The notes under the pieces were generated by a model, which saw nothing but the letters and a program-made list of their open reading frames with translations, did no database searches and was not told where the DNA came from. A stretch of DNA of 32,000 nt from Desulfobulbus propionicus DSM 2032 (GTDB lineage Bacteria; Desulfobacterota; Desulfobulbia; Desulfobulbales; Desulfobulbaceae), in the NCBI RefSeq assembly GCF_000186885.1, contig NC_014972.1, forward strand, positions 1,890,001-1,922,000, read 5' to 3'. The stretch's first letter is position 1; each line of letters starts with the position of its first letter. This document shows, in pieces, positions 1,886 through 21,356 of the stretch. The translations under genes and the position numbers were made by a program.

Positions 1886-2318
1886 CCAACCCTCCATTGT
1901 GTCAAAAATACCGTGGCAACATGAATCGTGCAGGAACGGCTGGCCAAATTCGACCAACAGGGGTGCCGTTCGTTGGCCCACTAAACCAAAGCAGAGGGAG
2001 GAGAACAGCTCGCAAATTTACCAGGATTTGGAAATATTCTTCCCAATATGACCGGCAGACAGGCAGCCATCACTTTGCTCTGTGTGATTGAATCGGGGGA
2101 GGGGAGGGCGGTCGTGAACGCGCGTCATGGACCAGGGCGATGCTCTTCTTTGGGTGATTCCTTGGCCGATTGGGAAATTCACTCAAATGAAAGCATGCGA
2201 AATCAAATAAATGAAGATGGTTGACCGCTGTCTTTCCAAGAGGGGCGCAAACAAGGGGAGGGGGCGGAAAAGCCTTGAGTGCCCGCATTTTACACCTGAT
2301 CCGCTCATTTTTTTTCCT

Positions 2319-2347
2319 TTGACAAAGAAATCTTTTTTTATTTTAGT
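2319..2347 (+). promoter_or_regulatory. Candidate sigma70-type promoter for the HU gene
   Basis: Perfect -35 TTGACA (2319-2324), 17-nt spacer, then TTTAGT (2342-2347; 4/6 match to TATAAT). A T-rich tract lies upstream. The site is about 80 nt before the HU start. Motif match only. Confidence 0.4.
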
Positions 2348-2426
2348 TTCGGCGTTGTCAACAGATGCCGCGTCAGGAACGAGAGCCTGGCTGTTGTGGC
2401 AATGGTCAAAACTCTGGGAGGGAAGA

Positions 2427-2699
2427 ATGAATAAAAAGGAACTGGTTGAGTCCATGGCGGAGGCGGCAGAAATCAGTAAGGCCGCGGCCGAAAAAGCGCT
2501 GAATGGAATGCTTATGGCTGTCTCTGACGCACTGGCCAAGGGAGACAAGGTAACCCTGGTTGGCTTCGGAACATTTTCCACCGTCAAACGCACCGAACGC
2601 AAAGCGAAAAATCCTCGTACCGGTGCAATGATCGAAATCCCCTCCAAAACGATCGCCAAGTTCAAACCGGGCAGCAAACTGTCTGACGCTGTCAACTAA
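2427..2699 (+). CDS. hup: DNA-binding protein HU
   Basis: 90 aa starting MNKKELVESMAEAAEISKAAAEKALNGMLMAVSDALAKGDKVTLVGFGTFSTVKRTERKAKNPRTGAMIEIPSKTIAKFKPGSKLSDAVN. It aligns end to end with E. coli HU-beta. GGGAGGGAAG RBS upstream. The longer ORF from 2211 is rejected. Confidence 0.95.
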   Translation: MNKKELVESMAEAAEISKAAAEKALNGMLMAVSDALAKGDKVTLVGFGTFSTVKRTERKAKNPRTGAMIEIPSKTIAKFKPGSKLSDAVN

Positions 2700-2721
2700 C
2701 GGTCCTTTTCATCGACGGGTG

Positions 2722-2751
2722 AAAAACAGCTGACGGTCGTCAGCTGTTTTT
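2722..2751 (+). terminator. Rho-independent terminator after hup
   Basis: AAAAACAGCTGAC-ggtc-GTCAGCTGTTTTTGTTT: a 13-bp stem followed by a T-run. Confidence 0.7.
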
Positions 2752-2923
2752 GTTTGTACCTTCCCAGCCTGGTCATGGTTGTCGTGTTCATGCGATTCCT
2801 GAACATTCCGTTCATGTCGAGAAGAGTAAAAAAAATCGATGAAAAGGGCTGGACACGAAGAACAAACCATGCTAAATGGGTAGCCGCATTTGATGGCGAC
2901 ATCTTCTGCGGCACAAAACGGAT

Positions 2924-3000
2924 CGGGAAGTGGCTCAGTCTGGTAGAGCACAGCGTTCGGGACGCTGGGGTCGGAGGTTCGAATCCTCTCTTCCCGACCA
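2924..3000 (+). tRNA. tRNA-Pro (anticodon CGG), with CCA encoded
   Basis: Cloverleaf read by hand. Acceptor CGGGAAG/CTTCCCG; D-arm GCTC/GAGC; anticodon stem CAGCG/CGCTG with loop TTCGGGA (anticodon CGG); T-arm GGAGG-TTCGAAT-CCTCT; then A-CCA. Very close to E. coli proK. Confidence 0.95.
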
Positions 3001-4919: not shown

Positions 4920-6350
4920 CTATTGCTCCGCCGCACCGTCCGCATGGGAAGAGGACTGCCCTGGCCGACGGGTTTCACCGCCCAGGGCCTTGGCCAGGGT
5001 AATATGGTTTTGCAGTTGATTGAAGCGGTTCTCCGCCAGGTTGATTTCCGCCTGCCGCCGGTCTTCCTGGGCATCGAGCCAGGATTTGAGCGCGCTGCCT
5101 CCTGCCTGGTAGCGGATTCGATACAGTTCTTCGGTTCGCTTGGCCGCTGCCAGGGTCTGTTGCAGTTTTTCTTCCTCCATCCGGTACTGCTGGCGGGCCG
5201 AGAGACTGTTCTCCACCTCCGCCAGGGCACGGTAGAGCGTCTGGCGAAATTCGAGCACCGCCTGTTCGTATTCGGCCTCGGCAATCTTGATGGTGCGGCG
5301 CATGTCCCGCCACTGGATAAAGGGCAGGGCCAGTTCCGCCCCCAGGGCGGCAATAGGATTGCTCAACAGACGGGAAAGCTCCTCGCTGCTGCCGCCAAAG
5401 GAACCGCTGAGGCTGATGGCCGGGTAATAGGAAGCGCGGGTGGCGTCGCTGCTGGCCAGCAGCGATCGCAGCCGGGCTTCAGCGGCGCGCAGATCCGGCC
5501 GCCTGGCGAGCAGGGAGGCCGGCAGACCGGCCTCCACTCCCGGCAGGATGACGGTAGTCAAGTCTTGCGGTTCACGGATGGCCAGACTTTGCGGCGGCCC
5601 GTCAAAGAGGATGGCCAGACTGTTGCGGGCCTCGACCCGTTGCTGAACGAGACTGGTGTGGCTTGCCTCCTGACTTGCCAGACTGCGCTCTGCCTCCAGG
5701 ATTTCCAGGGTCGTGACTGCCCCCGCCGCCTTCTGCACCCGTACCAGTTCAAGGGTACGGCGGGCATAGGCGATGCTGGCCTCGGACAGGGAGATGCGTT
5801 GATTGAGATAGCCGATCTGCCAGTAGAGCGAGGCGGTCGTGCCCACCAGGGAGAGGGCCGTGCTGGCGCGGTCCTCGTCCGTGGCCACCGCTTGCCAGCG
5901 GGCCGCGTCAGAAGTACTGCCCAGCCTGTTCCACAGATCCAGTTCATATCCAACCGCGGCCGAGACGGCAACGGTGCGGGTTTCACCGCTTTTCGCCCCC
6001 AGATTGCGGCTGTAGTCCGTGCTGCCGCCCACGGCCAGGCTTGGCAGCCGGTCACTGTCCGCCAGTTCCGCCTGGAGTGCGGCCTTGCGCACCAGCACGG
6101 TGGCCGCGGCCAGGTCATTGTTGCGCCGCAGCGCCTCGCCGACCAGCTGGTTGAGCACCGGATCATCGAACCCTTCCCACCAACGGTCCGCCAACACTTT
6201 GCCGACCTCGGACCGATGCGTCCACGAGGCCGGCAGACGCGCCTCGGGGGTGGTGTAGGGGGTGTGGGTCAGGGCACCGCAGCCGCTCAGGACAAGAACC
6301 ACCAACGCGGTGCTGAAATATTTGCCAGAAATTGGACGCATTGGAATCAC
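4920..6350 (-). CDS. Outer-membrane efflux lipoprotein, NodT/OMF family
   Basis: 476 aa. Lipobox VLVLSGC at the N-terminus, and two TolC-like repeats (...LDLWNRL..., ...LAEVENSL...). The start overlaps the macB stop by 4 nt. Confidence 0.9.
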
Positions 6351-8302
6351 TCCCGCGACAGGGCCACCACCGGATCGAGGCGGGCGGCATTGCGCGCCGG
6401 CAGAAATCCGAACAGCACGCCGATGAAGGTTGAACAGAGAAAGGCGCTGACAATGGCACTGGTGGAATAGATCAGCTTGAAATCGCTGCCGGAAAAGGTG
6501 ACCGCCACCCCAAGGCCCAACGCCAGGCCAATGCCGAGAAAGCCGCCGAGCAAGCAGACCAACACCGCCTCAATGAGAAACTGCTGCATGATGTCGCTGT
6601 GACGGGCGCCCACGGCCATGCGTACCCCGATCTCCTGGGTGCGCTCGGTCACCGAAACGAGCATGATGTTCATCACGCCGATGCCGCCTACCAGCAGTGA
6701 AATCAAGGCGATGGAAGAGATCAGCAGGGTCATGGTCTGGGTGGTTTTCTCAATGGTCTGGCGGATGGAATCGAGGTTGGATACGAAAAAATCCTTGGTT
6801 CCGTGGCGCTGGGTGAGCAGTTTGACCACGCTTTGCTCGGCCACCGCGCTCGACACGCTGTCGGCCACCCGCACGGTGATCGAGCGCAGATACTGCTGGC
6901 CGGTCAGTCGATGCATGGCCGTGGTATAGGGAACCCACAGATTGAGCGTGTCGGTGTCGCCGAAATTGGAATCCATTTTCTTGGTCACCCCGATCACCCG
7001 GCAGGGAACCTTGCCCAGCATGATGACCTGACCCAACACCTCGTTGGGGGTGTCGGCGAACAGAGCGCGGCGGGTGTTCTGGTCGATGACCACGTCCTGG
7101 GCGCTCGCCCGCACGCTGGCGCGGTCAAACAACTGCCCCTCGGCCAGTTCCATGCCGCGTACCCGGAAATAGTGCTCGCCCACCCCGTTGACCTGGGCGG
7201 TGACGCTGACGCTGCGGTGGATCAGGGTGACCGATTTGGTGACTACCGGGGTGACGGTGTCCACATAGGGCTGTTGGGCCAGGGCATCCGCATCGCGGGG
7301 GATGAGGGTGCGAACTCTGCCCGAACGCATGTCGCCGAAATCCTTGCCCGGATAGATGCTGATGGTGTTGGTGCCCATCGCGCTGATATCCTTGAGGATA
7401 CGCTGGCGGGACCCCTCGCCCAGGGCCACCACCGAAACTACCGAGGCAATGCCGATGATGATGCCGAGCATGGTCAGCAGGGTGCGCAGCCGATGCGAGG
7501 CCATGGCCAGGGTGGCCATGTGAAAGGCCTCGGCAAATCGGTCCCACTGGGCCCGCCACCGGGAGGATTCTCCCGCGGCCTTGGGTGAATGGGCGCCTTT
7601 GTTGCTGTCCGTCCTGATTCGCCGGTCGGCGACGATGGCCCCGTCGCTCAGTTCGATGATCCGGTTGGCGTGCTGAGCCACCTGCAGATCATGGGTCACG
7701 AGGATGATCGTATGGCCGTCATCGTTGAGTTCCTTGAGGATGGTCATCACCTCGTTGCCGCTGGCCGTGTCCAGGGCGCCGGTGGGCTCGTCGGCCAGAA
7801 TCACCGCGCCGCCGTTCATCAGGGCTCGGGCGATGGAGACCCGCTGCTGCTGGCCGCCGGACAGCTTGCCCGGCACGTGTTCCATGCGGTCGGCCATGTT
7901 CAGGCGTGTGAGCAGGGCCGCCGCCCGTGCCAGGCGATCCCGGCTGTTCATTCCGGCATAGATGGCCGGAATCTCGACGTTGGCCAGGGCGTTGAGGTTG
8001 CCCAGCAGGTGGTAGCGCTGAAAGATGAAACCAAAATGCTCACGGCGCAGAAACGCCAGCTCGTCCGGCGCAAGTTGGCCGGTTTCCTGACCGTTGACCC
8101 GATACACGCCCCGGCTGGGCCGATCGAGGCAGCCGATGATGTTCATCAGGGTAGACTTGCCCGAACCGGAAGTACCGACAATGGCCACCATCTCGCCGGC
8201 CTCGATGGTCAGGTCGATGGACTTGAGCACGGTCAGCACCTCGTCGCCGGAGGGATAGTCGCGGCAGACGCCCCGCAGTTCGATCAGCGGCGTGGCCATC
8301 AC
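6347..8302 (-). CDS. macB: MacB-type ABC transporter (fused N-terminal ATPase and C-terminal FtsX-like permease)
   Basis: 651 aa. Walker [10 protein letters not shown], signature [15 protein letters not shown], Walker [12 protein letters not shown], then 4 TM segments around a large periplasmic domain. The length matches E. coli MacB. Confidence 0.92.
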
Positions 8303-9522
8303 ATCATTCCCGGCATCGGGCCGCGCCGTCGCATGGTGGTGGCTGGAGCCGCGGCCGCGCTGACCTGCTCGCCGATCACCACCCGCTGTCCCTCGGTCAG
8401 CCCGTCCACCACCTCGGCCTGGACATTGTTATTGAGGCCGATTTGCACCCACTGTTCGTTGAAGGTGTTGGGTCCGGTTTCGACCCGCACCTGATAGCGC
8501 CCCTCCTTGTCCTTTGTTCCCAACGCGGCGGAGGGAATCGTCAACACGTTCTTGGCCTCGGCCAGGACAATGTTCACCTGGGTGGTCATGGAGATGCGCA
8601 GCTTGCCGTCGGGGTTGGGCACCTCCAGGATGCCCATGTAATAAATGGCGGTGCTCGATGAGCTGGAAGAGGCGGATGAACTGGAGGACGTGCTATCGTC
8701 GTTTTCTATGGACTCCGGCGCCGGTTCGATGGATTGCAGCACCGCTGGATACTGACGGTCCGGTTCGCCAAGGATGGTGAAATAGACCCGCTGTCCCGGT
8801 TGGACCCGGACCACGTCCGCCTCGGAAATCTCGACCTTGATGGTCATCCGGTCGAGTCGGGCCACCTTGATGATGGTCGGCGCGGTCTGATTGGCGTTGA
8901 CCGTCTGTCCTTCCTTGGTGACGATGGCCACCACCACGCCGTCGATGGGCGAGCTGATCTTGGTATAGCCCAGATCAAGCTGGGCGGTATCGACGGCGAT
9001 CTTGGCCTGTTCGATCTGGGCGTCCAGGGCGGTGATTTCCGCCCGCAACACCTGCAAGGTTGCCTCGGCGGCCTCGAAATCCTCGCGGGAAGCGGCATCA
9101 CCCCGCAGCATCAGGCTTTGACGTTTGTAGGCCAGCTCCGCCTGTTTCAGCGATGCCTCCTTGGCCTGCTTTTCGGCACGCACCGCTGCCAGCGCCGCGG
9201 TTTGGGTGCGCAGGGTATTCTGCTGCGGCAAACTGTCGATCTCCGCCACCAACTGCCCGGCCTTGACCGTGTCGCCCAGTTCCACCTTGAGCGACTTGAG
9301 CTGTCCGGACACCTGGGCGCCGACACTGACCATGTTTTCCGATTCCACCGTGCCGCTGGCCAGCACCGTGGTTTCGAGGTCGCCCCGGGACACGGGCGCG
9401 GTCATGTAGCCGGGCTGTTTGTCGCGGCCAAAATAATACAAGGCTCCGCCGGCAACCGCCAGCACGAGCAGGGCGGCGGGCAGCAGATAACGCCAGCGGG
9501 ATCGTTTCTGTAGGGTCTTCAT
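8299..9522 (-). CDS. macA: MacA-type periplasmic adaptor (membrane fusion protein, HlyD family)
   Basis: 407 aa. N-terminal TM anchor, a coiled-coil hairpin (...[32 protein letters not shown]...), a lipoyl motif and a beta-barrel. 4-nt overlap with macB. Contains an atypical Ser-rich insert. Confidence 0.9.
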
Positions 9523-10709: not shown

Positions 10710-10891
10710 GATGAATCTCCATGTGGTAGTGGTGGTGGGGCGAATCCCCCATATTGATCAACAATGCCTCCACCTTACCCCGTCATTGTGCAAGAAATGT
10801 GGAAGAAAAAAGGAAATCGGTGATTGGGCGAAAAGAGGGTGGAAGTGGTCGGCAGGGGTGTGGTAGGTACAGGCCGGGAGGAGCACTTTTG

Positions 10892-12352
10892 ATGAAAACA
10901 CCCTTGACCCTCGGTATTCGCTACCGTTTGTTTTTCGCCTTTCTTGCCGCCGCCTGCTGCGTCATCGTCAGCATGTTCGTGGTCACCAGAATCAGTTTTG
11001 AGCGCGGGGCCTTCCGCTATGTCCATCTGGTGGAGAAGGAGCGGCTGGAACTCCTGGCCCGCACCCTGGAGCAGTTCTACGCGGAAAAAAAGCAGTGGAA
11101 TTTTCTTGAGCAGGAGCCAACGACCTGGATGGAACTGGTCGCGGGCAGCAGACCGCTGCACCACCCGCTGTTCAAGCTCCATAAACGCATGGGCGCGCTG
11201 GTCGATGGGCACGGCCCCTCGCTCCAGCTGGAACCGCCCCCGCCTCCCTTGCCCAAGGGCGAACAGATTTTCGAACTCAGGGTCCTGTTGCTCGATGCCG
11301 ACAAGCATCGGCTATATGGTCCGGCCGAGCCCTGGCCGCAGCCACCCTTTCTGCTGCCTCTCAATACCGGGGAGCGGAAGATCGGCTATCTTGGCCTGAT
11401 CCCGCCGCGTATCCTGGCCGATGTCCGGGTGCGCCAATTTGTCCGCGAGCAGCACCATGCCCTGATCGTCATTGCCCTGTGCATTGCCGCTGGCGCGGCC
11501 CTGTTGTCCATCCCCTTGGCGGGCCGGCTGGTGCGGCGCATCACCGCCCTGGCGGCAGCCACCAACCGTCTGGCTTCGGGGTACTATGACATCCGCGTAC
11601 CCGTTGAAACCAGCGATGAACTGGGCCAATTGGCCCGTGATTTCAACCGCCTTGCCCAGACCTTGCATCGCAACGAGCAGTTGCGCCGTCGCTGGGTGGC
11701 GGATATCTCCCATGAATTGCGCACCCCGCTCTCGGTTCTGCGTGCCGAGATCGAGGCCATTCAAGACGGTGTTCGTCAATGGACGCCGCAGACCATGGAA
11801 CACCTCCATGGCGAGATCCTCCATCTCAGCCGGTTGGTCGACGATCTGTACAAATTGGCACTGGCCGACATCGGGGCATTGACCTATCGCAAGGAACAGC
11901 TCGACCTGACCGCCCTGGTTGCCCAGGTTGTTCTCGCCTTTCGGGAACGGTTCGAGGCCCACCGCCTGCACTTGGACTACACCGAGCCCAACCGGCCGCT
12001 GGTCGTGTTTGCCGACGCGGAGCGGCTGCGTCAACTGCTCGCCAACCTGTTGCACAATGCACTGCGTTATACCGATGCCGGCGGTACATTGCGGGTGCGC
12101 CTCACCGAGGAGGGGGGCTGCGTACTGTTACGGTTGAGTGATTCCGCCCCGGGCGTGCCCGACGAAGCCCTGGAGCGGCTATTTGAACGTCTGTACCGGG
12201 TCGAGGGGTCGCGCAGCCGGGCTCACGGCGGCGCCGGCCTGGGCCTGGCCCTGTGCAAATCGATTGTCGAGGGCCATGGCGGAACCATCCGGGCCGCGCA
12301 CTCCGATCTGGGTGGCCTGGAAATACGCATCACCTTGCCAACCAACGGATGA
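10892..12352 (+). CDS. baeS: Envelope-stress sensor histidine kinase, BaeS-like (2 TM, HAMP, HisKA, HATPase_c)
   Basis: Start MKTPLTLGIRYRLFF at 10892 with a GGGAGGAG RBS. VTRISFERG, ADISHELRTPLSVLRAEIEAIQDGVRQWTPQT and LFERLYRVEGSRSRAHGGAGLGLALC align closely with E. coli BaeS as I recall it. Confidence 0.88.
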   Translation: MKTPLTLGIRYRLFFAFLAAACCVIVSMFVVTRISFERGAFRYVHLVEKERLELLARTLEQFYAEKKQWNFLEQEPTTWMELVAGSRPLHHPLFKLHKRMGALVDGHGPSLQLEPPPPPLPKGEQIFELRVLLLDADKHRLYGPAEPWPQPPFLLPLNTGERKIGYLGLIPPRILADVRVRQFVREQHHALIVIALCIAAGAALLSIPLAGRLVRRITALAAATNRLASGYYDIRVPVETSDELGQLARDFNRLAQTLHRNEQLRRRWVADISHELRTPLSVLRAEIEAIQDGVRQWTPQTMEHLHGEILHLSRLVDDLYKLALADIGALTYRKEQLDLTALVAQVVLAFRERFEAHRLHLDYTEPNRPLVVFADAERLRQLLANLLHNALRYTDAGGTLRVRLTEEGGCVLLRLSDSAPGVPDEALERLFERLYRVEGSRSRAHGGAGLGLALCKSIVEGHGGTIRAAHSDLGGLEIRITLPTNG

Positions 12353-13855: not shown

Positions 13856-14932
13856 ATGGACATTCGCTCAAGAGCCGAGGCGCAGCAACGGGTTGATCAG
13901 TTGGCGGCCTTCCGCGCCGAACTGGCAATCATCGAACAGAAGCATGTGATCACGCTCGATGAAGGCCAACGGGAGGCGGTGCATCGCTATCACGACCAGG
14001 TGCTCGCCCGGTTGGCCGCTGTGTTTGATATCGACTTGACCAGCAGGGACAAGCAACTCAGCCTGGGAATGCGGATTACCGCCTTTTTCGGGGCCATGGG
14101 ACTTGCGGCCAGTGTGTTCTTTTTCTACTTTCAATACTGGGGATGGCTGGCCACCAACACCCAGGTGACCATCCTGGTCGCCATGCCGTTGGCGGGCTTG
14201 CTGCTCACCATGGCCGCGGTCTGGATGGAGCGATCCGGTTATTTTTCCAAGCTGTTCGCCCTGGTCAGTCTGGTTTGTTTCATGCTCGATTTCTCCCTGC
14301 TCGGTCAGATTTTCAACCTTGGGCCCACCCCTCATGCCTTGCTCGTTTGGGCGGCGTTTGCCTGCCTCCTCGCTTACGCGACTGAAGGACGCTTCCTGCT
14401 CGCCATGGGCATCCTCTGCTTTGCCGCCTTCCTTTCCGCGCAAACCGCCACCTGGAACGGCTGCTACTGGATCTCCTTTGGCGAGCGGCCGGAAAACTTC
14501 CTTCCGGCGGCACTGTGCTTTTTTCTGTTCGCTCTTCTCCCGCAACGTCGCTATACCGGCTTTCCCGCCATTTACCGGATCTTTGCCCTGCTGTTTTTTT
14601 TCCTGCCGGCGCTGATCCTCTGCAATTGGGGGGCTCTGAGCTATATCGACCTGGCCCCTGAGCGCATCGAAGCCCTCTACCAAGTGCTCGGCTTTGTCGC
14701 CAGCGCGGCGGCCATCGGCCTTGGTATCGTCAAGGGGTGGCCCGAGACGGTCAACAGCGGCACTGTGTTTTTGACTCTTTTTCTCTACACGAAATTTTAC
14801 GACTGGTGGTGGGACTGGATGCCCAAGTACCAGTTTTTTTTGATCATCGGCCTGACTGCCCTGTGCATGCTGCTGATTCTCAAAAGAATGCGCTTCCTCT
14901 CGATCCGGCGGAAGGCGGAGATGACGGTATGA
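13856..14932 (+). CDS. Polytopic membrane protein with an N-terminal soluble helical region (DUF2157-like, tentative)
   Basis: 358 aa. A hydrophilic head of about 70 aa is followed by about 9 hydrophobic helices. No catalytic motif recognised. Confidence 0.7.
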   Translation: MDIRSRAEAQQRVDQLAAFRAELAIIEQKHVITLDEGQREAVHRYHDQVLARLAAVFDIDLTSRDKQLSLGMRITAFFGAMGLAASVFFFYFQYWGWLATNTQVTILVAMPLAGLLLTMAAVWMERSGYFSKLFALVSLVCFMLDFSLLGQIFNLGPTPHALLVWAAFACLLAYATEGRFLLAMGILCFAAFLSAQTATWNGCYWISFGERPENFLPAALCFFLFALLPQRRYTGFPAIYRIFALLFFFLPALILCNWGALSYIDLAPERIEALYQVLGFVASAAAIGLGIVKGWPETVNSGTVFLTLFLYTKFYDWWWDWMPKYQFFLIIGLTALCMLLILKRMRFLSIRRKAEMTV

Positions 14933-15780
14933 ATGCGGCCGTGGTTCGTGGTCTGCTCTTGGCCGTCGGCTTTCTCTTGATCGCTGTGGCGAATGGCATG
15001 ATTCTTTTCCAGGTGAATGCGAACAGGAAAGGGGAGGCCGAGGCGCGTTTGTGGCTGACCGAGCGGGAAATGCCGCAAGCGTTTTGGCTGGCCCATGAAA
15101 ACAGTGGCATGGAGCTGCGCCTGGTCTGGCGAACCTTGAGCCGTGACGTAAATGGGGGCGAGGACCGCATGCCCTCCTGGCTGAGCGGTAAAAAACTGGA
15201 GGAATTGGGGTTTCGATTCGTCGATGGCTTGTCGGTGGACAACCAGCCCACCAAGGTGTTGATGTCCAAGAAAGTGTATCTGGTCCTTGAATACAACGGC
15301 CCGGCCTACCAAACCGCGCGCAGGCGGGTGGCGCAGATTCTGGAGCACGAGGAAGCGGCGTTGCGCGCCAATCCTGCCGACAGGAACGGATCGATCCGGC
15401 TCCAAGCCAAAAAGCGTATCCGTGCCGAGGAACAGAGCGAGTCACGGCTGTTTGTCATTGATGCCGGACTTGATCCCCAACCGCTGCGGACAAGCTATCC
15501 CGAGACAAACCGGTTCATCGTCACCCCGGGGGTGATCGAGCTGATGTACCGCACCGAAGGGGGCAGGCAGTGGGCGGCCGGCGCCATCCGCTCAATCAGC
15601 CCCGACACGGTGCATGTTCCCCTGGAACACAGGGTGACGCTCGAACAGCTTGCAGGGAAAGGCAAGTTCTTGTCCACCGAGGGAAAAGCGCCACGATATG
15701 AGGTCGAACTGGTGTACGGGTCTCGACGCGTACCGTGGATTGCCGCCATTCGTCCGCTGGCAGCGCCCTTGGCAGAATAG
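14929..15780 (+). CDS. Membrane-anchored hypothetical protein, translationally coupled to the preceding gene (DUF4824-like?, tentative)
   Basis: ATGA overlap with the upstream stop. MNAAVVRGLLLAVGFLLIAVANGMILF is a single N-terminal anchor; the rest is soluble. The longer tracked ORF from 14737 is rejected. Confidence 0.65.
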   Translation: MNAAVVRGLLLAVGFLLIAVANGMILFQVNANRKGEAEARLWLTEREMPQAFWLAHENSGMELRLVWRTLSRDVNGGEDRMPSWLSGKKLEELGFRFVDGLSVDNQPTKVLMSKKVYLVLEYNGPAYQTARRRVAQILEHEEAALRANPADRNGSIRLQAKKRIRAEEQSESRLFVIDAGLDPQPLRTSYPETNRFIVTPGVIELMYRTEGGRQWAAGAIRSISPDTVHVPLEHRVTLEQLAGKGKFLSTEGKAPRYEVELVYGSRRVPWIAAIRPLAAPLAE

Positions 15781-16974: not shown

Positions 16975-17243
16975 GCATGCATTGCTTCTTTTGTGCGTGC
17001 GGTTAAGCATGCGGTACTTAAAAAAAATAACCCAAAAAAAACCGCTTCATATATTTTTTTTTCTGACGTATACTTCCGGTAATTGAACGGTTGCAAAACT
17101 ATCTTTCCGGAAAAACAACAATTTTCCCTGTAAAGAGTGGTCTCGCCATGGGTAATGGGGAAAAAGGATTTTCGTGCCCCTTTGCGAACTGTTTTTTTCA
17201 TTCTTCCTTTTAACTTTTCTTTGAACCTGAACGAGGTAGCTTT
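16975..17243 (+). promoter_or_regulatory. AT-rich non-coding leader/promoter region upstream of the mglB-like gene
   Basis: A8 tracts at 17020-17027 and 17034-17041, and a T9 tract at 17054-17062. Two GAAAA-N-TTTTC inverted repeats: GGAAAAacaacaaTTTTCC at 17109-17127 and GAAAAaggaTTTTC at 17160-17173. I could not place a convincing -35/-10 or -24/-12 pair. Confidence 0.4.
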
Positions 17244-17642
17244 ATGAATTATGGAGTTGTTAGCCAGGAGCAGCTTGAAAAGATAGATGAAATCCTGACT
17301 GAAAAGCTCATAAAGATAGGCGTTGACTGCGTTATCATTATCGATATGGCAGGAAACATCATTACCGCCAAGGATAACGGCACATCGAAATATGATGTCT
17401 ATTCGTTTGCCGCCCTGGCCGCCGGCAATTTCGCCACAGTCGATGCCATGGCTAAACTCGTTGGAGAACAGGAGTTTTCTCTCCTCTTTCATAAAGGAGC
17501 GGAATGCAACATTCATTTTTCAAAAATAGACGATGAACTCTTGCTCATCACCATGTTCGGCAAGAGCATATCTCTGGGATTTTTACGTCTCAACGTCGTT
17601 GAGGCCATTGAACGAATCAAGAAGATTTGGGCGCGCAAATAA
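17244..17642 (+). CDS. Roadblock/LC7-domain protein, MglB-like (putative GAP partner of the adjacent GTPase)
   Basis: 132 aa. VIIIDMAGNIITAKD...SFAALAAGNFATVDAMAKLVGEQEFSLLFHKGAECNIHFSKIDDELLLITMFGKSISLGFLRLNVVEAIERIKKIW aligns block for block with the M. xanthus MglB core as I recall it. The protein ends right after the Roadblock fold, with no acidic tail. Confidence 0.88.
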   Translation: MNYGVVSQEQLEKIDEILTEKLIKIGVDCVIIIDMAGNIITAKDNGTSKYDVYSFAALAAGNFATVDAMAKLVGEQEFSLLFHKGAECNIHFSKIDDELLLITMFGKSISLGFLRLNVVEAIERIKKIWARK

Positions 17643-17718
17643 TCGTCATCTTCGGTCAAGGCATTGGATGTATTTCAATTGTGCGTGTGTGATCAGCGTA
17701 AGGCCGTAGGAGAATGTG

Positions 17719-18324
17719 GTGAGTTTCATTAATCTCAGAGAAAAAATCGTTCAGGTCAAGATTGTCTACTATGGACCGGGTCGCGGGGGAAAAACAACCA
17801 ACCTTGAATACATCAACCGGAAATTCTCCAAGCAGATTCAGTCTGAAATGGTCAGTCTGAAAACTCATGGCGACCGAACCCTGTTTTTTGATTTCCTGCC
17901 GTTCAACATGGGGCAGATAAAAGGCTATGAATTGAAAATACAGCTCTATACGGTCCCTGGACAGGTCAAATACAATGCAACGAGAAAATTGGTGCTCAAA
18001 GGAGTTGACGGTATTGTATTCGTTGCCGACGCCCAAGAGCAGATGCGGGAAAAAAACATTCGGTCCCTTAATCAATTGCATGAAAATCTCATGAGCTACA
18101 AGGAATCCATTTTCAAGATTCCACTGGTGCTTCAGTACAACAAAGTCGATCTGCGCAATCAGGGGATTCCGATTCTGCCCACCGCCGTGCTGGACAAGGA
18201 TTTGAACAGCAAGTTGAAGGTGCCCACCTTTGAGGCCAGCGCGCTTACAGGGTACAACGTTCCGGAAACGTTAAAAAAAATCATCTCATCCACGGTTCTT
18301 TCCATCCAAAAGAAACTGATGTAG
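17719..18324 (+). CDS. MglA-family Ras-like small GTPase
   Basis: MSFINLREKIVQVKIVYYGPGRGGKTTNL...DRTLFFDFLP...LYTVPGQV...LKGVDGIVFVAD...QYNKVD...EASALTG reads roughly half identical to M. xanthus MglA by eye. The G1-G5 motifs are intact. The ORF track starts at GTG 17716. GTG 17719 gives the MglA-like MSFIN N-terminus and better spacing from TAGGAGA. Confidence 0.92.
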   Translation: MSFINLREKIVQVKIVYYGPGRGGKTTNLEYINRKFSKQIQSEMVSLKTHGDRTLFFDFLPFNMGQIKGYELKIQLYTVPGQVKYNATRKLVLKGVDGIVFVADAQEQMREKNIRSLNQLHENLMSYKESIFKIPLVLQYNKVDLRNQGIPILPTAVLDKDLNSKLKVPTFEASALTGYNVPETLKKIISSTVLSIQKKLM

Positions 18325-18360: not shown

Positions 18361-21297
18361 ATGAAAAAATCGCAGCAACCCACCATCACCGCAACCGATG
18401 ATTTTGAGGATTTGACGCTTTTTGCCAACGAATCCTTCGACACCCAAGACGTTGACCTCTTTGAGTTCACCAGTGAAGAGTCGTCACCTTTAACCCGATT
18501 GAAATCCATCATTCTTTCGCTCGACTGGGAAATCAATGACGAAATTTTGCAGGAATTGGCCGATGAATTGGATAACTTGCAGTCCATGTGGCAGGGAGAT
18601 AAAGTCGCGGAAGTTTATTTGCAGGGACTGAGCAAGATAGGAAGTTACATTCGTACCAAAGGAGCCTATGCGCATCCCAATTCCATCAAATTACTCCTCA
18701 CTTTTTTCTATAATTTCGAGAAAATTATCTCTTCCGAACAGATAACCGGCGAACAAATCACCCAGTTGCTCAAGGGCGATATTCGCAAATTTAAAATCCT
18801 TCAGTATCAAATCAATCAAAGTGAAGACTCTTCGATTCCGCCCGTCGAAAGCACCTTTGAACCGAGTCCGCCCACGCCGGACATAACTGCTCCTTCCACC
18901 GAACCGAGTTCGGCAAAACAGCTGAAAGCCGCCATATTGAGCCTCGATTGGGAGGTGACGAACGACAGCCTTGCCCAGTTTCACACAACACTCGCCAGTT
19001 GTCATCAACTGATGGCCGACAACAAGCCGGCGCTCGTCTTACTCCAAGGGTTACAGGCATTGGGCGATTATATCGCCGAAGAGCGCGCGGACGCACACCC
19101 CGAAGCCTTCACCCTGCTGCATTCGTTCAATGAAGGCCTGGAGCAGGTGACCAGAACAGACGGCCAGCGTCTTGATCAGGCCAGCATTCAAGATCTTCTT
19201 GTTGACCGGGTCAATCGCCTGAACACGTTGAAGATGCTGATCACCGCACCGGTCGCTCCCCCGGTCGACGAGCATTTCATCGATGAAGTTGTCGAGGAAA
19301 TCAGCACCGCCGCTCATCAAGACGAGACGGCTTCCGAGCGCCCATCGTTGACCGTGGAAGCGTCTCCCGTTGATGCTCTGTCGCAGGAGGCATTGACGAT
19401 CGACCGCGATCTCCAGCTGCCGGGAGACGCGTCTGCGACCGATGATCTTGAGGCGGAAATCGATACGCTGTTTGCCCTCAACGCCACTCCGGCAATGGAA
19501 ACGGCTGATCTGCAATATCCCGATGAAATCCTGCCGCCGGAGGCCATTCATCCTGTCGACGATGAGCTGGCAGACGATTTCATCGAGGCCCACCTCAGCG
19601 CCAATCGTGGTCTGATGCCGGCCTTGTCCGACATCGACGGGCAGTCCGAGTATCCCCAGGAGAGGAGCGTGGGCGATTTGCCAATGGAAAGCGATCTCGC
19701 CGAACAACTGGATGTTCTCTTTGCCGAAACCGACGGCCAGGAATACGCTGAACCGGCTTCAAGCTCCGTACCTTTGGAAGACGGGGTCGCGGCCAGCGAG
19801 TTCAACGAGAACGAACCAATTGCCGCCCTTGCCGATATCGACATCGACGAACAAGCCCCCTTTGGCACCGCATTGCCGACAGAGGACCTCTTTGTCCTGG
19901 AAGCCGAGGAGAGTGATCACGATCAGCAGAGTCTCGACATCGAGGGCACACTGGACAAGTTCTTTGCCGAAGGAGAGGAAGAGCCTCAACTGTCGATGAT
20001 AGCGGATACCGTTGACGAAGAGTTCGGCCAGCCCCTCGCTTTCGAGGAGGAAGGCGGCCTGCACGCCGCCTTGACCGACATCCCAGCAAGGCAGGGGGCG
20101 GAACAGGAGGAACCTGTCCTGTCCTTCGAATTCGCGCCAGCCGACGAAATATCGTTCGATGAGCACCAGCCGATCGTGGCCCTTGCCGATGCTGAACCGC
20201 CTCCCGATCAGTTTGCCTTGGAAGCCTCGGGAGGTGAAGACGATCAAAACTCGTTAGACCTGCAAAACAAGCTGGACAGTTTCTTTGCCGATGTGGCCGA
20301 AGAGCCCGCCGAGACGGTGGCGGAGGAACCAGATGGGGAAGCAATCGAACAACTGACCCTTGCCGATCAGGAAATCAGCCCGTCCGCCTTGGCCGACATT
20401 CCGGAAGAACTCGGCTTCGAGGAAGAAGAAACGCCTCTAGAGGTGGTGCCAATCGCTGAAATTGAAGAAAAACTCGATTTCTTCTTTGGCACGGAGGCAG
20501 AGGAACCGGACGTCGAGGGGGAAACGTCTCTTGATGCAGCCCTTGCATCGATGGCCGAAACTGCGCCGGCGATTACCCCGGCGTTGCAAGAGATCGTCTC
20601 CTCGGCAGTTCCCGAGGAGGAAGAAGACGCCCTGGCCGCGATCGCGAACGTTGATCTGCCGGAAACCGAACTCGAAGAGGCCCTTGATTTGTTCTTTGAT
20701 GCGGAGCAAGAGGAAACAAAGAAAGAGCTCGAACCACTGGCGGCCGACGAATTGACCGAGGCCCTTGAGGCGGCAACCCTTGGCGATGGGGTGATCGGCA
20801 CGCTGGACGACGACAAGCAGATGCATCTGGCCGCGCTGGGGGCCTTGTTGCCCCTGGTGGTCCGCACGCCCTCCCGTGAAAAAATGGCTGAAGCCGCTGA
20901 GATGATCGCCACCCTTCATCAAGCGGGGCTGTCCAGTGAACAGACTGCCCTGCTCCGCTTGCTGGAATCGGTGGTCTCCATGCTGATGCGTCTTCCCGCC
21001 CACGACAACGCGGCAACCGAAAAGCTGGTCAATTATCTTTATGAACAGCTGCTTCGCCCTTCGTGTCCTCCCGACGTTCTGCCGAACGCGATCAACCGCT
21101 TTACCGGCTGGTTGCAGCAGGCAAGCAGTCTCATGCCGCTTGTTCCAGCGGTCACTGCCAGCGACGAGGGAAGCAAGGAACAGGAACCGTCATTCACCTA
21201 CACCGCCAAGGATCTGTATTTCGAACTTGCGGCGTTACGAGGGCAAATCAAGGAAGAGTTTGCCAACGTGCGGCATGCCTTGAAGCATCACCATTGA
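18361..21297 (+). CDS. 978-aa polyacidic multi-repeat protein of unknown family (candidate scaffold/effector of the MglA/MglB-like pair)
   Basis: A long uninterrupted ORF starts 36 nt after the GTPase gene and is closed by a strong terminator. Its internal protein-level repeats would not be maintained in a non-coding frame. I recognise no known domain. Confidence 0.85.
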   Translation: MKKSQQPTITATDDFEDLTLFANESFDTQDVDLFEFTSEESSPLTRLKSIILSLDWEINDEILQELADELDNLQSMWQGDKVAEVYLQGLSKIGSYIRTKGAYAHPNSIKLLLTFFYNFEKIISSEQITGEQITQLLKGDIRKFKILQYQINQSEDSSIPPVESTFEPSPPTPDITAPSTEPSSAKQLKAAILSLDWEVTNDSLAQFHTTLASCHQLMADNKPALVLLQGLQALGDYIAEERADAHPEAFTLLHSFNEGLEQVTRTDGQRLDQASIQDLLVDRVNRLNTLKMLITAPVAPPVDEHFIDEVVEEISTAAHQDETASERPSLTVEASPVDALSQEALTIDRDLQLPGDASATDDLEAEIDTLFALNATPAMETADLQYPDEILPPEAIHPVDDELADDFIEAHLSANRGLMPALSDIDGQSEYPQERSVGDLPMESDLAEQLDVLFAETDGQEYAEPASSSVPLEDGVAASEFNENEPIAALADIDIDEQAPFGTALPTEDLFVLEAEESDHDQQSLDIEGTLDKFFAEGEEEPQLSMIADTVDEEFGQPLAFEEEGGLHAALTDIPARQGAEQEEPVLSFEFAPADEISFDEHQPIVALADAEPPPDQFALEASGGEDDQNSLDLQNKLDSFFADVAEEPAETVAEEPDGEAIEQLTLADQEISPSALADIPEELGFEEEETPLEVVPIAEIEEKLDFFFGTEAEEPDVEGETSLDAALASMAETAPAITPALQEIVSSAVPEEEEDALAAIANVDLPETELEEALDLFFDAEQEETKKELEPLAADELTEALEAATLGDGVIGTLDDDKQMHLAALGALLPLVVRTPSREKMAEAAEMIATLHQAGLSSEQTALLRLLESVVSMLMRLPAHDNAATEKLVNYLYEQLLRPSCPPDVLPNAINRFTGWLQQASSLMPLVPAVTASDEGSKEQEPSFTYTAKDLYFELAALRGQIKEEFANVRHALKHHH
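18487..18810 (+). repeat. Helical domain copy A1 (aa 43-150 of the 978-aa protein)
   Basis: LTRLKSIILSLDWEINDEILQELADELDNLQSMWQGDKVAEVYLQGLSKIGSYIRTKGAYAHPNSIKLLLTFFYNFEKII... Confidence 0.8.
18910..19242 (+). repeat. Helical domain copy A2 (aa 184-294)
   Basis: AKQLKAAILSLDWEVTNDSLAQFHTTLASCHQLMADNKPALVLLQGLQALGDYIAEERADAHPEAFTLLHSFNEGLEQV... is colinear with A1. Shared elements: LK..ILSLDWE, LLQGL...G.YI, AHP, LL..F. Confidence 0.8.
19456..20703 (+). repeat. Array of six acidic L-D-x-[FL]-F-[AGD] motifs alternating with A-L-[AST]-D-I motifs in a polyanionic, probably disordered region
   Basis: EIDTLFA (19456-19476), QLDVLFAE (19705-19728), TLDKFFAE (19948-19971), KLDSFFAD (20269-20292), KLDFFFGT (20470-20493), ALDLFFDA (20680-20703). 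Interleaved with MPALSDIDG, PIAALADIDID, HAALTDIPA, PIVALADAEP, PSALADIPEE, DALAAIANVDLPE. Confidence 0.8.
20818..21060 (+). repeat. Probable third, diverged copy of the helical domain (aa 820-900)
   Basis: QMHLAALGALLPLVVRTPSREKMAEAAEMIATLHQAGLSSEQTALLRLLESVVSMLMRLPAHDNAATEKLVNYLYEQLL lines up with A2 at L.AA.L.L, HQ, ALL..L, AH and L..Y/F..L positions. The similarity is weak and was aligned by eye. Confidence 0.5.
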
Positions 21298-21318: not shown

Positions 21319-21356
21319 AAAAAGGGAGCCGGAATCATCTCCGGTTCCCTTTTTTA
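21319..21356. terminator. Bidirectional rho-independent terminator between convergent operons
   Basis: GAAAAA-GGGAGCCGGA-atcatc-TCCGGTTCCC-TTTTTTATTTT: a 10-bp stem with one G-U pair, an A-run on one side and a T-run on the other. It overlaps the yejE-like stop codon. Confidence 0.75.

Follow-up and report, generated by a model that had tools for sequence, protein, structure and literature searches.

MglA and MglB are the model for the setting of polarity by a bacterial Ras-like GTPase, and recent work has placed MglB's C-terminal helix (Ct-helix) at the centre of its unusual dual behaviour as GTPase-activating protein (GAP) and guanine nucleotide exchange factor. Here we describe a locus of Desulfobulbus propionicus DSM 2032 in which MglB lacks this helix, and in which the gene after mglA (18361-21297, forward strand) encodes an acidic protein of 978 aa, the third protein, with an array of short motifs in its central region. 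The locus lies in a window of 32,000 nt (NC_014972.1, positions 1,890,001 to 1,922,000 of the forward strand), and nucleotide positions below are those of the window unless a locus is named. The motif array is real and uncharacterised; comparison with MglB sequences suggests that the job of the MglB tail may have moved to the operon partner and been multiplied there.

In Myxococcus xanthus, MglB residues 147-157 form a helix in a pocket of MglA made of α5, β2 and the β2–β3 loop, away from the nucleotide, as a sequence-only reading of this DNA had stated (Baranwal et al. 2019, PMC6785124; PDB 6IZW). The residues named in the helix are I148, D150-152, D154, L156 and F157; D150-152 make contacts, D154 meets K185, F157 meets K181, and L64 and I67 are close (PMC6785124). 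The Ct-helix is what retains MglB on MglA-GDP (2026 study, PMC13408092). As a precedent, RomR has a Glu-rich C-terminal helix that is similar to the Ct-helix, and MglB with this helix in a chimera stimulates MglA as well as the wild type does (PMC6785124). Both the Ct-helix and the similar helix of RomR are therefore already published. A further M. xanthus protein, RomY, is an MglB co-GAP of 188 aa (PMC9481161).

The motif array of the third protein

The third gene follows mglB and mglA on the same strand. The first gene (17244-17642, forward) encodes a tail-less MglB-like Roadblock/LC7 protein of 132 aa, which matched Pfam Robl_LC7 and NCBIfam MglB, and the second (17716-18324, forward) an MglA-like Ras-type GTPase of 202 aa (PDB MxMglA, E 5.6e-52). 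The intergenic gaps are 73 nt between mglB and mglA and 36 nt between mglA and the third gene, and we read the three genes as a single operon. A Ras-like GTPase with an intrinsic Arg (R53) and Gln (Q82) adjoins a Roadblock protein here, which places the two in the MglA/MglB module (Group 1-type MglA with its cognate Roadblock GAP), and the pair itself is ordinary. The third protein belongs to an uncharacterised family with 360 homologues.

Between aa 300 and 815 (516 aa) the third protein contains 146 Asp/Glu and 10 Lys/Arg, exactly as counted by hand in the sequence-only reading; the full-length protein contains 211 Asp/Glu against 48 Lys/Arg. It has no transmembrane (TM) segment (maximum 19-residue hydropathy, KD19, 1.17) and no Pfam or NCBIfam match at E <= 0.1. 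The acidic region holds six copies of the pattern [LI]-D-x-[FL]-F, with L/I at aa 367, 450, 531, 638, 705 and 775. In order they read EIDTLFA, QLDVLFAE, TLDKFFAE, KLDSFFAD, KLDFFFGT and ALDLFFDA, and their five-residue cores cover 19459-20697, within 19456-20703. When the central region was shuffled 20,000 times the pattern occurred 0.05 times on average and 3 times at most, compared with the six copies observed. A hydrophobic residue stands at position -4 in 6/6 copies. Two related peptides are found near the N-terminus, EDLTLFAN (aa 16-23, 18406-18429) and DVDLFEF (aa 30-36, 18448-18468). All eight sequences and their positions are as originally reported.

Conservation was assessed on an alignment of 72 homologues of 39-64% identity. 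Five of the six motifs kept their strict core at orthologous positions in 50-70 of the 72: motif 1 (DLEAEIDTLFAL, aa 362-373, 19444-19479) in 60, motif 2 (DLAEQLDVLFAE, aa 445-456, 19693-19728) in 70, motif 4 (DLQNKLDSFFAD, aa 633-644, 20257-20292) in 68, motif 5 (EIEEKLDFFFGT, aa 700-711, 20458-20493; F708 and F709 invariant) in 66, and motif 6 (ELEEALDLFFDA, aa 770-781, 20668-20703) in 50. Motif 3 (DIEGTLDKFFAE, aa 526-537, 19936-19971) is a lineage-variable extra copy, present in 19/72. All of these features are on the forward strand. Mean column conservation was 0.65 in the motifs and 0.38 elsewhere in the acidic region. It is highest, with a mean of 0.91 over aa 13-36, around the N-terminal peptide EDLTLFAN...DVDLFEF (aa 16-36, 18406-18468, forward), which is the most conserved stretch of the whole protein. 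Among the 120 homologues listed, strict motif copies number 3-7 per protein, and the extended consensus is [DE]-[LI]-[EAQ]-x-[KQE]-L-D-x-[FL]-F-[AG]-[DE].

An AlphaFold2 (AF2) model of the full-length single chain gave a pLDDT score (predicted local distance difference test) below 50 over most of aa 319-813. Eight short helices were predicted in this region; six of them are the six motifs (helices 359-370, 441-455, 522-539, 629-642, 699-708 and 769-782 for motifs 1 to 6) and the others lie at 401-415 and 798-806. The array helices have pLDDT values of about 50-70.

The LD-x-FF helix is not the sole short motif of the repeat unit, since (P)ALSD...GF[SD]EE comes ahead of it. An A-L-[AST]-D-I motif had been reported about 40 aa before each central copy. 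We found it four times, at aa 421, 489, 570 and 676 (nt starts 19621, 19825, 20068 and 20386); it stands before motifs 2-5 only, by 29, 42, 68 and 29 aa. The last of these belongs to a second short motif, ALADIPEELGFEEEE (aa 676-695, 20386-20445, forward), in which A676 and F686 are invariant and which lies in a conserved block, aa 671-698. A further conserved block, aa 377-433 (AMETADLQYPDEILPPEAIHPVDDELADDFIEAHLS...PALSD, 19489-19659, forward), contains the predicted helix 401-415 (pLDDT ~78) and the invariant residues M379, E380, Y386, P387, A395, I396, P398, P420, A421 and L422. It is probably a binding element other than the LD-x-FF motif. In Desulfocapsa-type proteins (L022-L024) a third element, VDVETEADDDSDEEALP, has been added and the helix is altered to [RK]LGSFFDDE.

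A tandem-repeat search found no tandem repeat at the DNA level in the gene, which indicates that the motif copies are old and are maintained by selection on the protein. This bears on the possibility that the acidic region is merely a non-specific, 'FimV'-like spacer or polyanion in which the motif is a by-product of repeat expansion. Length and copy number do vary widely in the family, and several homologues are labelled 'pilus assembly protein FimV' by the Joint Genome Institute (JGI). Set against these points, the motifs are fixed by position while their flanks and spacing drift, no recent DNA repeat was found in the window, the protein has no LysM domain, TM segment or FimV model match, and a single N-terminal motif is kept in minimal homologues that have no acidic array. 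We disfavour this explanation and consider it very unlikely. The 'FimV' label itself was rejected, as no domain in Pfam or NCBIfam supports it.

The motif core, MglB tails and the MglA pocket

The window MglB aligned to residues 8-130 of M. xanthus MglB (PDB MxMglB, E 1.6e-16) and has no C-terminal extension. Its C-terminus, ...RIKKIWARK, comes directly at the end of the fold, as the sequence-only reading had noted. A search with the window MglB of a protein database clustered at 90% identity, which returned near-identical tail-less proteins only and did not sample tailed MglBs, showed that the protein is ~90% identical across the Desulfobulbaceae, with all members 130-133 aa long. The M. xanthus tail ends ...SPFAEISDDDIDNLFSE in PDB 6h5b_B and 6izw_B, exactly as the sequence-only reading had given it; other excerpts of the tail read ...ISDDDIDNLFSE and ...AEISDDDIDNLFSE.

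To sample MglB more widely, the window MglB was compared with 1.84 billion cluster representatives, yielding 150 relatives. A complete Roadblock C-end was present in 121/150, and 73/121 carried an extension of at least 15 aa. The pattern [LI]D.[FL]F occurred in 24/73 extensions, compared with 0.23 expected from shuffling, and in 0/121 Roadblock bodies. In 22/24 of the positive extensions it lay no more than 4 residues from the C-terminus. Tails outside Myxococcus that look like the array include KDKLDDLFGD, AQDRLDEFFDEP, ENELDDLFK and EEEIDKLFKE. A position-specific scoring matrix (PSSM) made from the array motifs was run with end padding, so that C-terminal motifs could be scored; 9/150 MglB representatives exceeded the 99% shuffle null, 8 of them at the extreme C-terminus. 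At the level of sequence, an acidic, predicted helical [LI]-D-x-[FL]-F core followed by a small residue and D/E is the hallmark of MglB tails in diverse lineages. The claim that the motifs resemble the MglB tail therefore stands for the core, which is common to 24/73 diverse tails, while the profile similarity to Myxococcus-type tails is weak.

On the MglA side, R53, T54, D58 and Q82 are invariant in 29 family MglAs. In the pocket, I67 is kept in 29/29, K181 is Lys in 28 and Arg in 1, L64 is replaced by Met, and there is an extra, invariant Lys, K182. The positive residues of α5 are not conserved in MglAs whose MglB is without the acidic helix (Baranwal et al., PMC6785124). Their retention here is mildly supportive. 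The Ct-helix pocket of the window MglA thus appears partly retained. A short α5 fragment, searched against the PDB for comparison with Thermus MglA, matched Rab27 only and was uninformative.

The partner of the helices might instead be a positively charged cleft at the interface of the Roadblock (MglB) dimer, in which case the third protein would be a RomR-like anchor for MglB. RomR residues 371-420, a helix, bind with nanomolar affinity to such a cleft in the dimer of the Roadblock protein MglC (PMC12719032). The family MglB has a basic C-terminus (RIKKIWxRK) and is ~90% conserved, as is the N-terminal peptide of the third protein, and the synteny with mglB is strict. The RomR interaction needs W394, however, and the motif described here has no Trp; moreover, its core is that of MglB tails, whose documented partner is MglA and not a Roadblock cleft. 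We consider binding to the MglB cleft unlikely.

The order mglB (130-135 aa core, tail-less), mglA, third gene was found in all of 28 loci, one genome per species (L001-L028). Nine further loci, reached through related MglBs or minimal homologues, have the same order: Candidatus Electrothrix (L109-L111), Desulfolithobacter (L112, L113) and metagenomic Desulfobacterales (L116-L119). Loci with the helical-bundle domain of the third protein were thus tail-less mglB-mglA-third gene in 37/37 cases. As a control we used 80 metagenomic Myxococcus-type mglA loci. Their complete MglBs were tailed in 69/69 cases (28-33 aa), 64 with the strict core, and the bundle domain was found in 0/80. Tail and third gene are therefore perfectly complementary between the two locus sets. 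Whether a tail-less MglB goes with an adjacent motif protein had been raised as a question; the counts are 37/37 against 0/80 loci, but they compare what are essentially two clades and do not prove a replacement statistically. An obligatory operon site after a tail-less MglB, combined with the tail core in one to many copies, appears to be undescribed.

We suggest that the acidic helices are multivalent surrogates of the MglB Ct-helix, supplied in trans, that dock in the α5/β2–β3 pocket of MglA; this is a tentative reading, with a chance that we put somewhat below even. The third protein would serve the MglA/MglB module as a scaffolding subunit, with an acidic middle that displays six amphipathic helices of the form [DE]-[LI]-x-x-x-L-D-x-[FL]-F-[AG]-[DE]. 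Together with the N-terminal peptide, these six would mimic the acidic C-terminal helix that is absent from MglB here. Each helix would dock in the pocket at α5 and the β2–β3 loop, away from the nucleotide, with the invariant F and D of the motif standing in for F157 and D154 of MglB. Acting in trans and in many copies, the third protein would keep MglA, whether loaded with GDP or with GTP, close to the MglB dimer, and it would modulate nucleotide exchange and turnover. MglA might in this way be concentrated at one cellular site, probably the pole with the flagellum or type IV pili. The analysis shows the anatomy of the protein, its conservation and synteny, the predicted helicity and a motif core identical with that of MglB tails; from here on we infer MglA binding, the site of binding and an effect on the GTPase cycle.

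A number of results weigh against this proposal. The shared core amounts to just four fixed residues, and position -1 is often Lys in the array and Asp in Myxococcus tails. On the array PSSM the score of the Myxococcus tail, 4.0 bits, falls between the 95% null value of 3.7 and the 99% value of 8.2, and on a PSSM made from MglB tails the window's six motifs scored no more than 9.2 bits, below the 14.8 bits of the 99% level of composition-preserving shuffles. A profile of the motif (A1) run with HMMER against all PDB sequences found no MglB and matched only a designed protein (E 1.3), the motif being too short for HMMER statistics. The MglA residue that pairs with D154 in 6IZW, K185, is replaced by Ser in 26/29 family members. 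The contrast between the two locus sets is one of lineages and is phylogenetically confounded, so that shared ancestry could explain it. MglB of T. thermophilus is said to lack the helix, and a tail-less MglB without such a partner therefore exists (PMC13408092). A single pocket per MglA leaves the need for 3-7 copies, and for dozens in cable bacteria, unexplained. Finally, most of the repeats in cable bacteria now read EDSFFG, without the L-D pair. The likeness of array and tail seems best described as a four-residue core in a common context, for which homology is not statistically demonstrable.

A broader possibility, which we regard as doubtful, is that the third protein represents an unrecognised class of subunit, in which the Ct-helix has moved from the GAP to a scaffold and been amplified from one copy to dozens, forming a polar reservoir or condensate of MglA that sets both the local MglA concentration and its nucleotide state. 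Many MglA molecules captured at once could in this way serve flagellar, pilus or gliding polarity in the Desulfobulbales, including the cable bacteria. A lineage whose MglB has no such helix, while an obligatory partner in the operon carries one or many look-alikes, would be a natural experiment on a helix working in trans, on the role of valency and on the takeover of allosteric control by a scaffold.

The family, its folded domains and its genomic context

Those of the homologues that carry organism names are from Desulfobulbus, Desulfobulbaceae or Desulfogranum. Complete proteins are mostly 816-1106 aa long and have either no name or a loose 'FimV' label. The third gene of Desulfobacterales and other 'delta' metagenome-assembled genomes (MAGs) encodes only 200-220 aa. 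These minimal homologues consist of one N-terminal motif, one bundle and a C-terminal helix, ALEEIKxxIKAEFxALRAELKLW. Their motifs, of the type EVExRLDDLF and at residues about 10-25, include EEVEKRLDDLFGD, AEVESRLEELFMED, EDVIRHLDDFFSEG and NDIENRLDDFFDES; the MglB-tail PSSM gives the first of these 21 bits. In the window protein the N-terminal peptide occupies the site of this single motif, and the minimal motif always adjoins a tail-less MglB. Since a single motif is already present in the simplest members of ~200 aa, the family must have had the motif ancestrally, and the six-copy array of the window is a later expansion between domains D2 and D3 in the Desulfobulbaceae. A protein family that matches no Pfam or NCBIfam model appears to be undescribed. 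Defining it provides a first molecular handle on the control of polarity and motility in Desulfobulbaceae and cable bacteria.

The order mglB-mglA-third gene is kept in Candidatus Electrothrix (L109 7141-12399, L110 7145-12399, L111 7132-12399). Gene calls there give the third protein 2539 and 1939 aa, with an open frame of at least 1750 aa in each locus; the 1753 aa read in L109 contain 677 Asp/Glu and 54 Lys/Arg. After 2-3 canonical LDSFF motifs, a unit of ~100 aa recurs at least 10 times in near-identical form, and the motifs in it are derived (SALESEDSFFGLDEE, DEFALSLDDEE, DELSEFSFDSDD). An apparent lack of the third gene in L111 was rejected as a gene-calling artefact, the frame being open for 1756 aa. 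A 'Proteobacteria bacterium' MAG (L021) has four tandem units of ~34 aa, AEPAEPAATDNEVAEEVSAGLSFLDEEVPGPGF, at aa ~520-650 (nt ~7560-7950 of that locus), which indicates that repeat expansion in the acidic region is recent in some lineages.

The folded parts of the window protein are all predicted to be helical. Domain D1 (aa 43-157, 18487-18831, forward) is a bundle with AF2 pLDDT 83-94 and conservation 0.86, and was represented by profile A2. D2 (aa 184-295, 18910-19245, forward; pLDDT 78-96) is paralogous to D1, with 31% identity in A2. A C-terminal helical domain, D3 (aa 814-924, 20800-21132, forward), has pLDDT 85-96. D3 as a third copy of D1/D2 was unproven (hhalign probability 0.2%) and was not retained. 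The protein ends in an amphipathic helix (aa 949-977, 21205-21291, forward; conservation 0.72) that it has in common with the minimal homologues. In the AF2 model of one such homologue (P0396, 205 aa) a low-confidence N-terminal helix was followed by one bundle with pLDDT ~90 and the C-terminal helix. Profile A2 found proteins of Desulfobacterota only, and none from Myxococcus. The third protein is predicted to be cytoplasmic, with bundles D1-D3, a C-terminal amphipathic helix and a disordered acidic middle of ~500 aa.

Foldseek searches of the PDB gave nothing significant for the bundles; the best match was CheA P1 at E 0.1. Histidine phosphotransfer (Hpt) domains were considered, and the top Foldseek matches were again CheA P1, at E 0.1-0.9 only, with no Pfam Hpt match. 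Whereas the Hpt model has a phospho-accepting His in its second helix, the conserved His of the bundles is part of an A-H-P turn, and D2 of Desulfocapsa-type proteins lacks it; the bundles were not assigned to the Hpt class. No Pfam Response_reg match was found in the third protein, whose N-terminal folded domains are all-helical bundles. The bundles are best modelled as generic up-down helical bundles of no recognisable family. A focal adhesion targeting (FAT) domain with the paxillin LD2 peptide was matched at E 0.55 with a template modelling (TM) score of 0.19-0.27.

This last match is relevant to a reading in which the helices dock on bundles D1-D3, either within one molecule or from one copy of the protein to another, as paxillin LD motifs dock on the four-helix FAT domain. 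Every member of the family, down to the 200-aa form, has at least one bundle and at least one motif; the bundles are of the up-down type, with CheA P1 and, weakly, FAT-LD2 as their nearest folds in the PDB, and the multivalency, extreme acidic disorder and growth in copy number fit a scaffold. Docking of the N-terminal helix in the AF2 model of the minimal protein was, however, unconfident (pLDDT 36-45), as were the array helices at ~50-70. None of the fold matches is significant (best E 0.1; FAT E 0.55, TM < 0.3), and the equality of the motif core with the MglB tail core is left without explanation. We hold this to be improbable. Its consequence, autoinhibition or a self-assembling polar matrix or condensate in which the bundles and not the motifs recruit MglA and MglB, has the same low probability.

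The genes around the operon suggest that it controls polarity or motility, as MglA does in other bacteria. Group 1 mglA neighbourhoods are widely variable, with PATAN-domain genes only occasionally near (2014 survey, PMC4316618). In 14/20 Desulfobulbus/Desulfogranum loci (L001-L020; L114 1-6636, L115 1-6491) the operon lies directly 3' of FliK and an FlhB-like gene, and most of these 14 also have PilZ-PilZ and several have FliS-FliT. The window and six other Desulfobulbus-type loci have the operon without a flagellar cluster there. In Desulfolithobacter (L112 10131-12402, L113 9943-12258) genes for a type IV pilin (N_methyl) and an MshEN/T2SSE ATPase come after the third gene. A metagenomic locus of the minimal type (L116 2151-6508, 9731-10120) has genes for a Zn-ribbon protein and for an MshEN/T2SSE ATPase at this place; near them are a PATAN-receiver regulator, an Hpt protein and an additional Roadblock gene on the opposite strand. 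A literature search for MglA together with cable bacteria or Desulfobulbus found no papers.

Such a context also raises the question of whether the motifs recruit outside clients, such as a CheY-like receiver, PilZ proteins or a type IV pilus ATPase, in which case the third protein would be an adaptor that links MglA to the machinery of the flagellum or pilus. The N-terminal peptide of FliM binds CheY-P. This peptide (MGDSILSQAEIDALLN, PDB 8umd_C residues 1-16; SQAEIDALL) bears a striking resemblance to both motif 1 (LEAEIDTLFAL) and M. xanthus MglB 148-159. We know of no earlier discussion of the similarity between FliM, the MglB Ct-helix and motif 1. Besides this resemblance, the adaptor explanation has in its favour the flagellar genes directly 5' in 14/20 loci, the pilin and/or ATPase genes 3' in Desulfolithobacter and the minimal-type locus, and the PATAN receiver and Hpt protein near by. 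On the other hand, the motif has an invariant Phe at +4, as in MglB tails, where FliM has Leu-Leu; the window and six Desulfobulbus-type loci are without adjacent flagellar genes; and synteny with mglBA is absolute while that with motility genes is not. Recruitment of outside clients is in our view quite improbable.

The limits of the window operon are marked, on weak evidence, by two features. A sigma-70-like promoter match lies 5' of mglB (17046-17074, forward); it is a consensus match only, and 4 such sites were found against 2.4 expected. A terminator-like hairpin with a T-run (21331-21348, forward) lies just 3' of the stop codon of the third gene. Read-through from MglA into the N-terminus of the third protein was rejected, since the two are in the same frame but three stop codons stand in the spacer. 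The longest MglA reading frame begins at GTG 17716 (VVSFINL...). Its homologues, with 201 aa, start with MSFINL, so that translation may in truth start at the codon after GTG 17716. The window mglB and mglA have a GC content of 44-45% (17244-18324) in a window of 59%. A GC dip at mglB/mglA of 1-16 points, typically 5-10, was found in 28/28 related loci (L001-L028). As it is common to all of them, with GC at third codon positions also lower, the dip stems from the composition of the two proteins, which are highly conserved and K/I/N-rich, and not from recent transfer into this genome.

On the 3' side of the window operon synteny is kept (ABC permeases, DUF4177, an aminotransferase), and the genes upstream encode efflux proteins, a histidine kinase and hydrolases. 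They include a MacAB-TolC-like efflux operon (OEP, ABC/MacB_PCD/FtsX, HlyD; 4920-9522, reverse strand), a HAMP histidine kinase (10754-12352) and DUF2157/DUF4824 genes (13856-15780), none of which is motility-related. An Rfam scan of the window found only a tRNA; this single tRNA gene (2924-2997, 65.5 bits) lies in a GC dip (50% in 2001-3000).

Comparison with known systems

Acidic helices within disorder are known from other systems. Paxillin LD motifs (LDxLLxxL) with their FAT domain, and the CheY-binding peptides at the FliM N-terminus (LSQAEIDALL) and the CheZ C-terminus, are analogous in this respect. The array has an F-F or L-F pair where these have L-L, and there is no sign of common ancestry or of the same partners. 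The array consensus, L-D-x-[FL]-F-[AG]-[DE], differs from LDxLLxxL, and the likeness to paxillin, with a FAT match at E 0.55, is one of analogy only, as the sequence-only reading had held.

HubP/FimV proteins likewise have a large, very acidic cytoplasmic repeat region and an association with polar flagellum or pilus genes. The third protein differs from them in its folded domains and in having no LysM domain, no TM segment and no match to FimV core or C-terminal models.

RomY, by its description, has one globular conserved domain and a short terminal motif, as do the minimal homologues of about 200 aa. The order is opposite, however, RomY having an N-terminal domain (conserved region, residues 8-89) and a C-terminal motif; its gene is apart from mglBA, and the MglB of that system is tailed.

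RomR of M. xanthus, with a receiver domain, a Pro-rich disordered linker and a Glu-rich C-terminal helix, is like the third protein, on the proposed reading, in being an MglA/MglB scaffold with long disorder and an acidic helix, and in probably being polar. The third protein is unlike it in lacking a receiver domain, in having helical bundles and many motif copies, and in being encoded in the mglBA operon. No sequence relationship between RomR and the third protein was detectable.

The MglB Ct-helix itself differs from the array helices in being a single C-terminal element, whereas here the helix is on a separate protein, in six internal copies with N-terminal variants. The upstream hydrophobic residue is at -4 in the array and at -5 in the Ct-helix, position -1 is often Lys instead of Asp, and K185 of MglA is Ser. 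What the two share is their place in an mglBA operon and an acidic amphipathic helix with an [IL]-D-x-[LF]-F core, after which come a small residue and then D/E. The Ct-helix follows a disordered linker, as the array helices do, and the MglA encoded here still has K181, I67 and, at position 64, a hydrophobic residue. As a class, Ct-helices are D/E-rich predicted helices with this core, sited on a Roadblock extension of >15 aa. All six copies have the former features, and they are sited on a separate protein. The array motifs are possibly a functional equivalent of the Ct-helix and not strict members of its class, and we propose that Desulfobulbales and Desulfobacterales have a polarity module of three parts, the tail-less MglB, MglA and the third protein.

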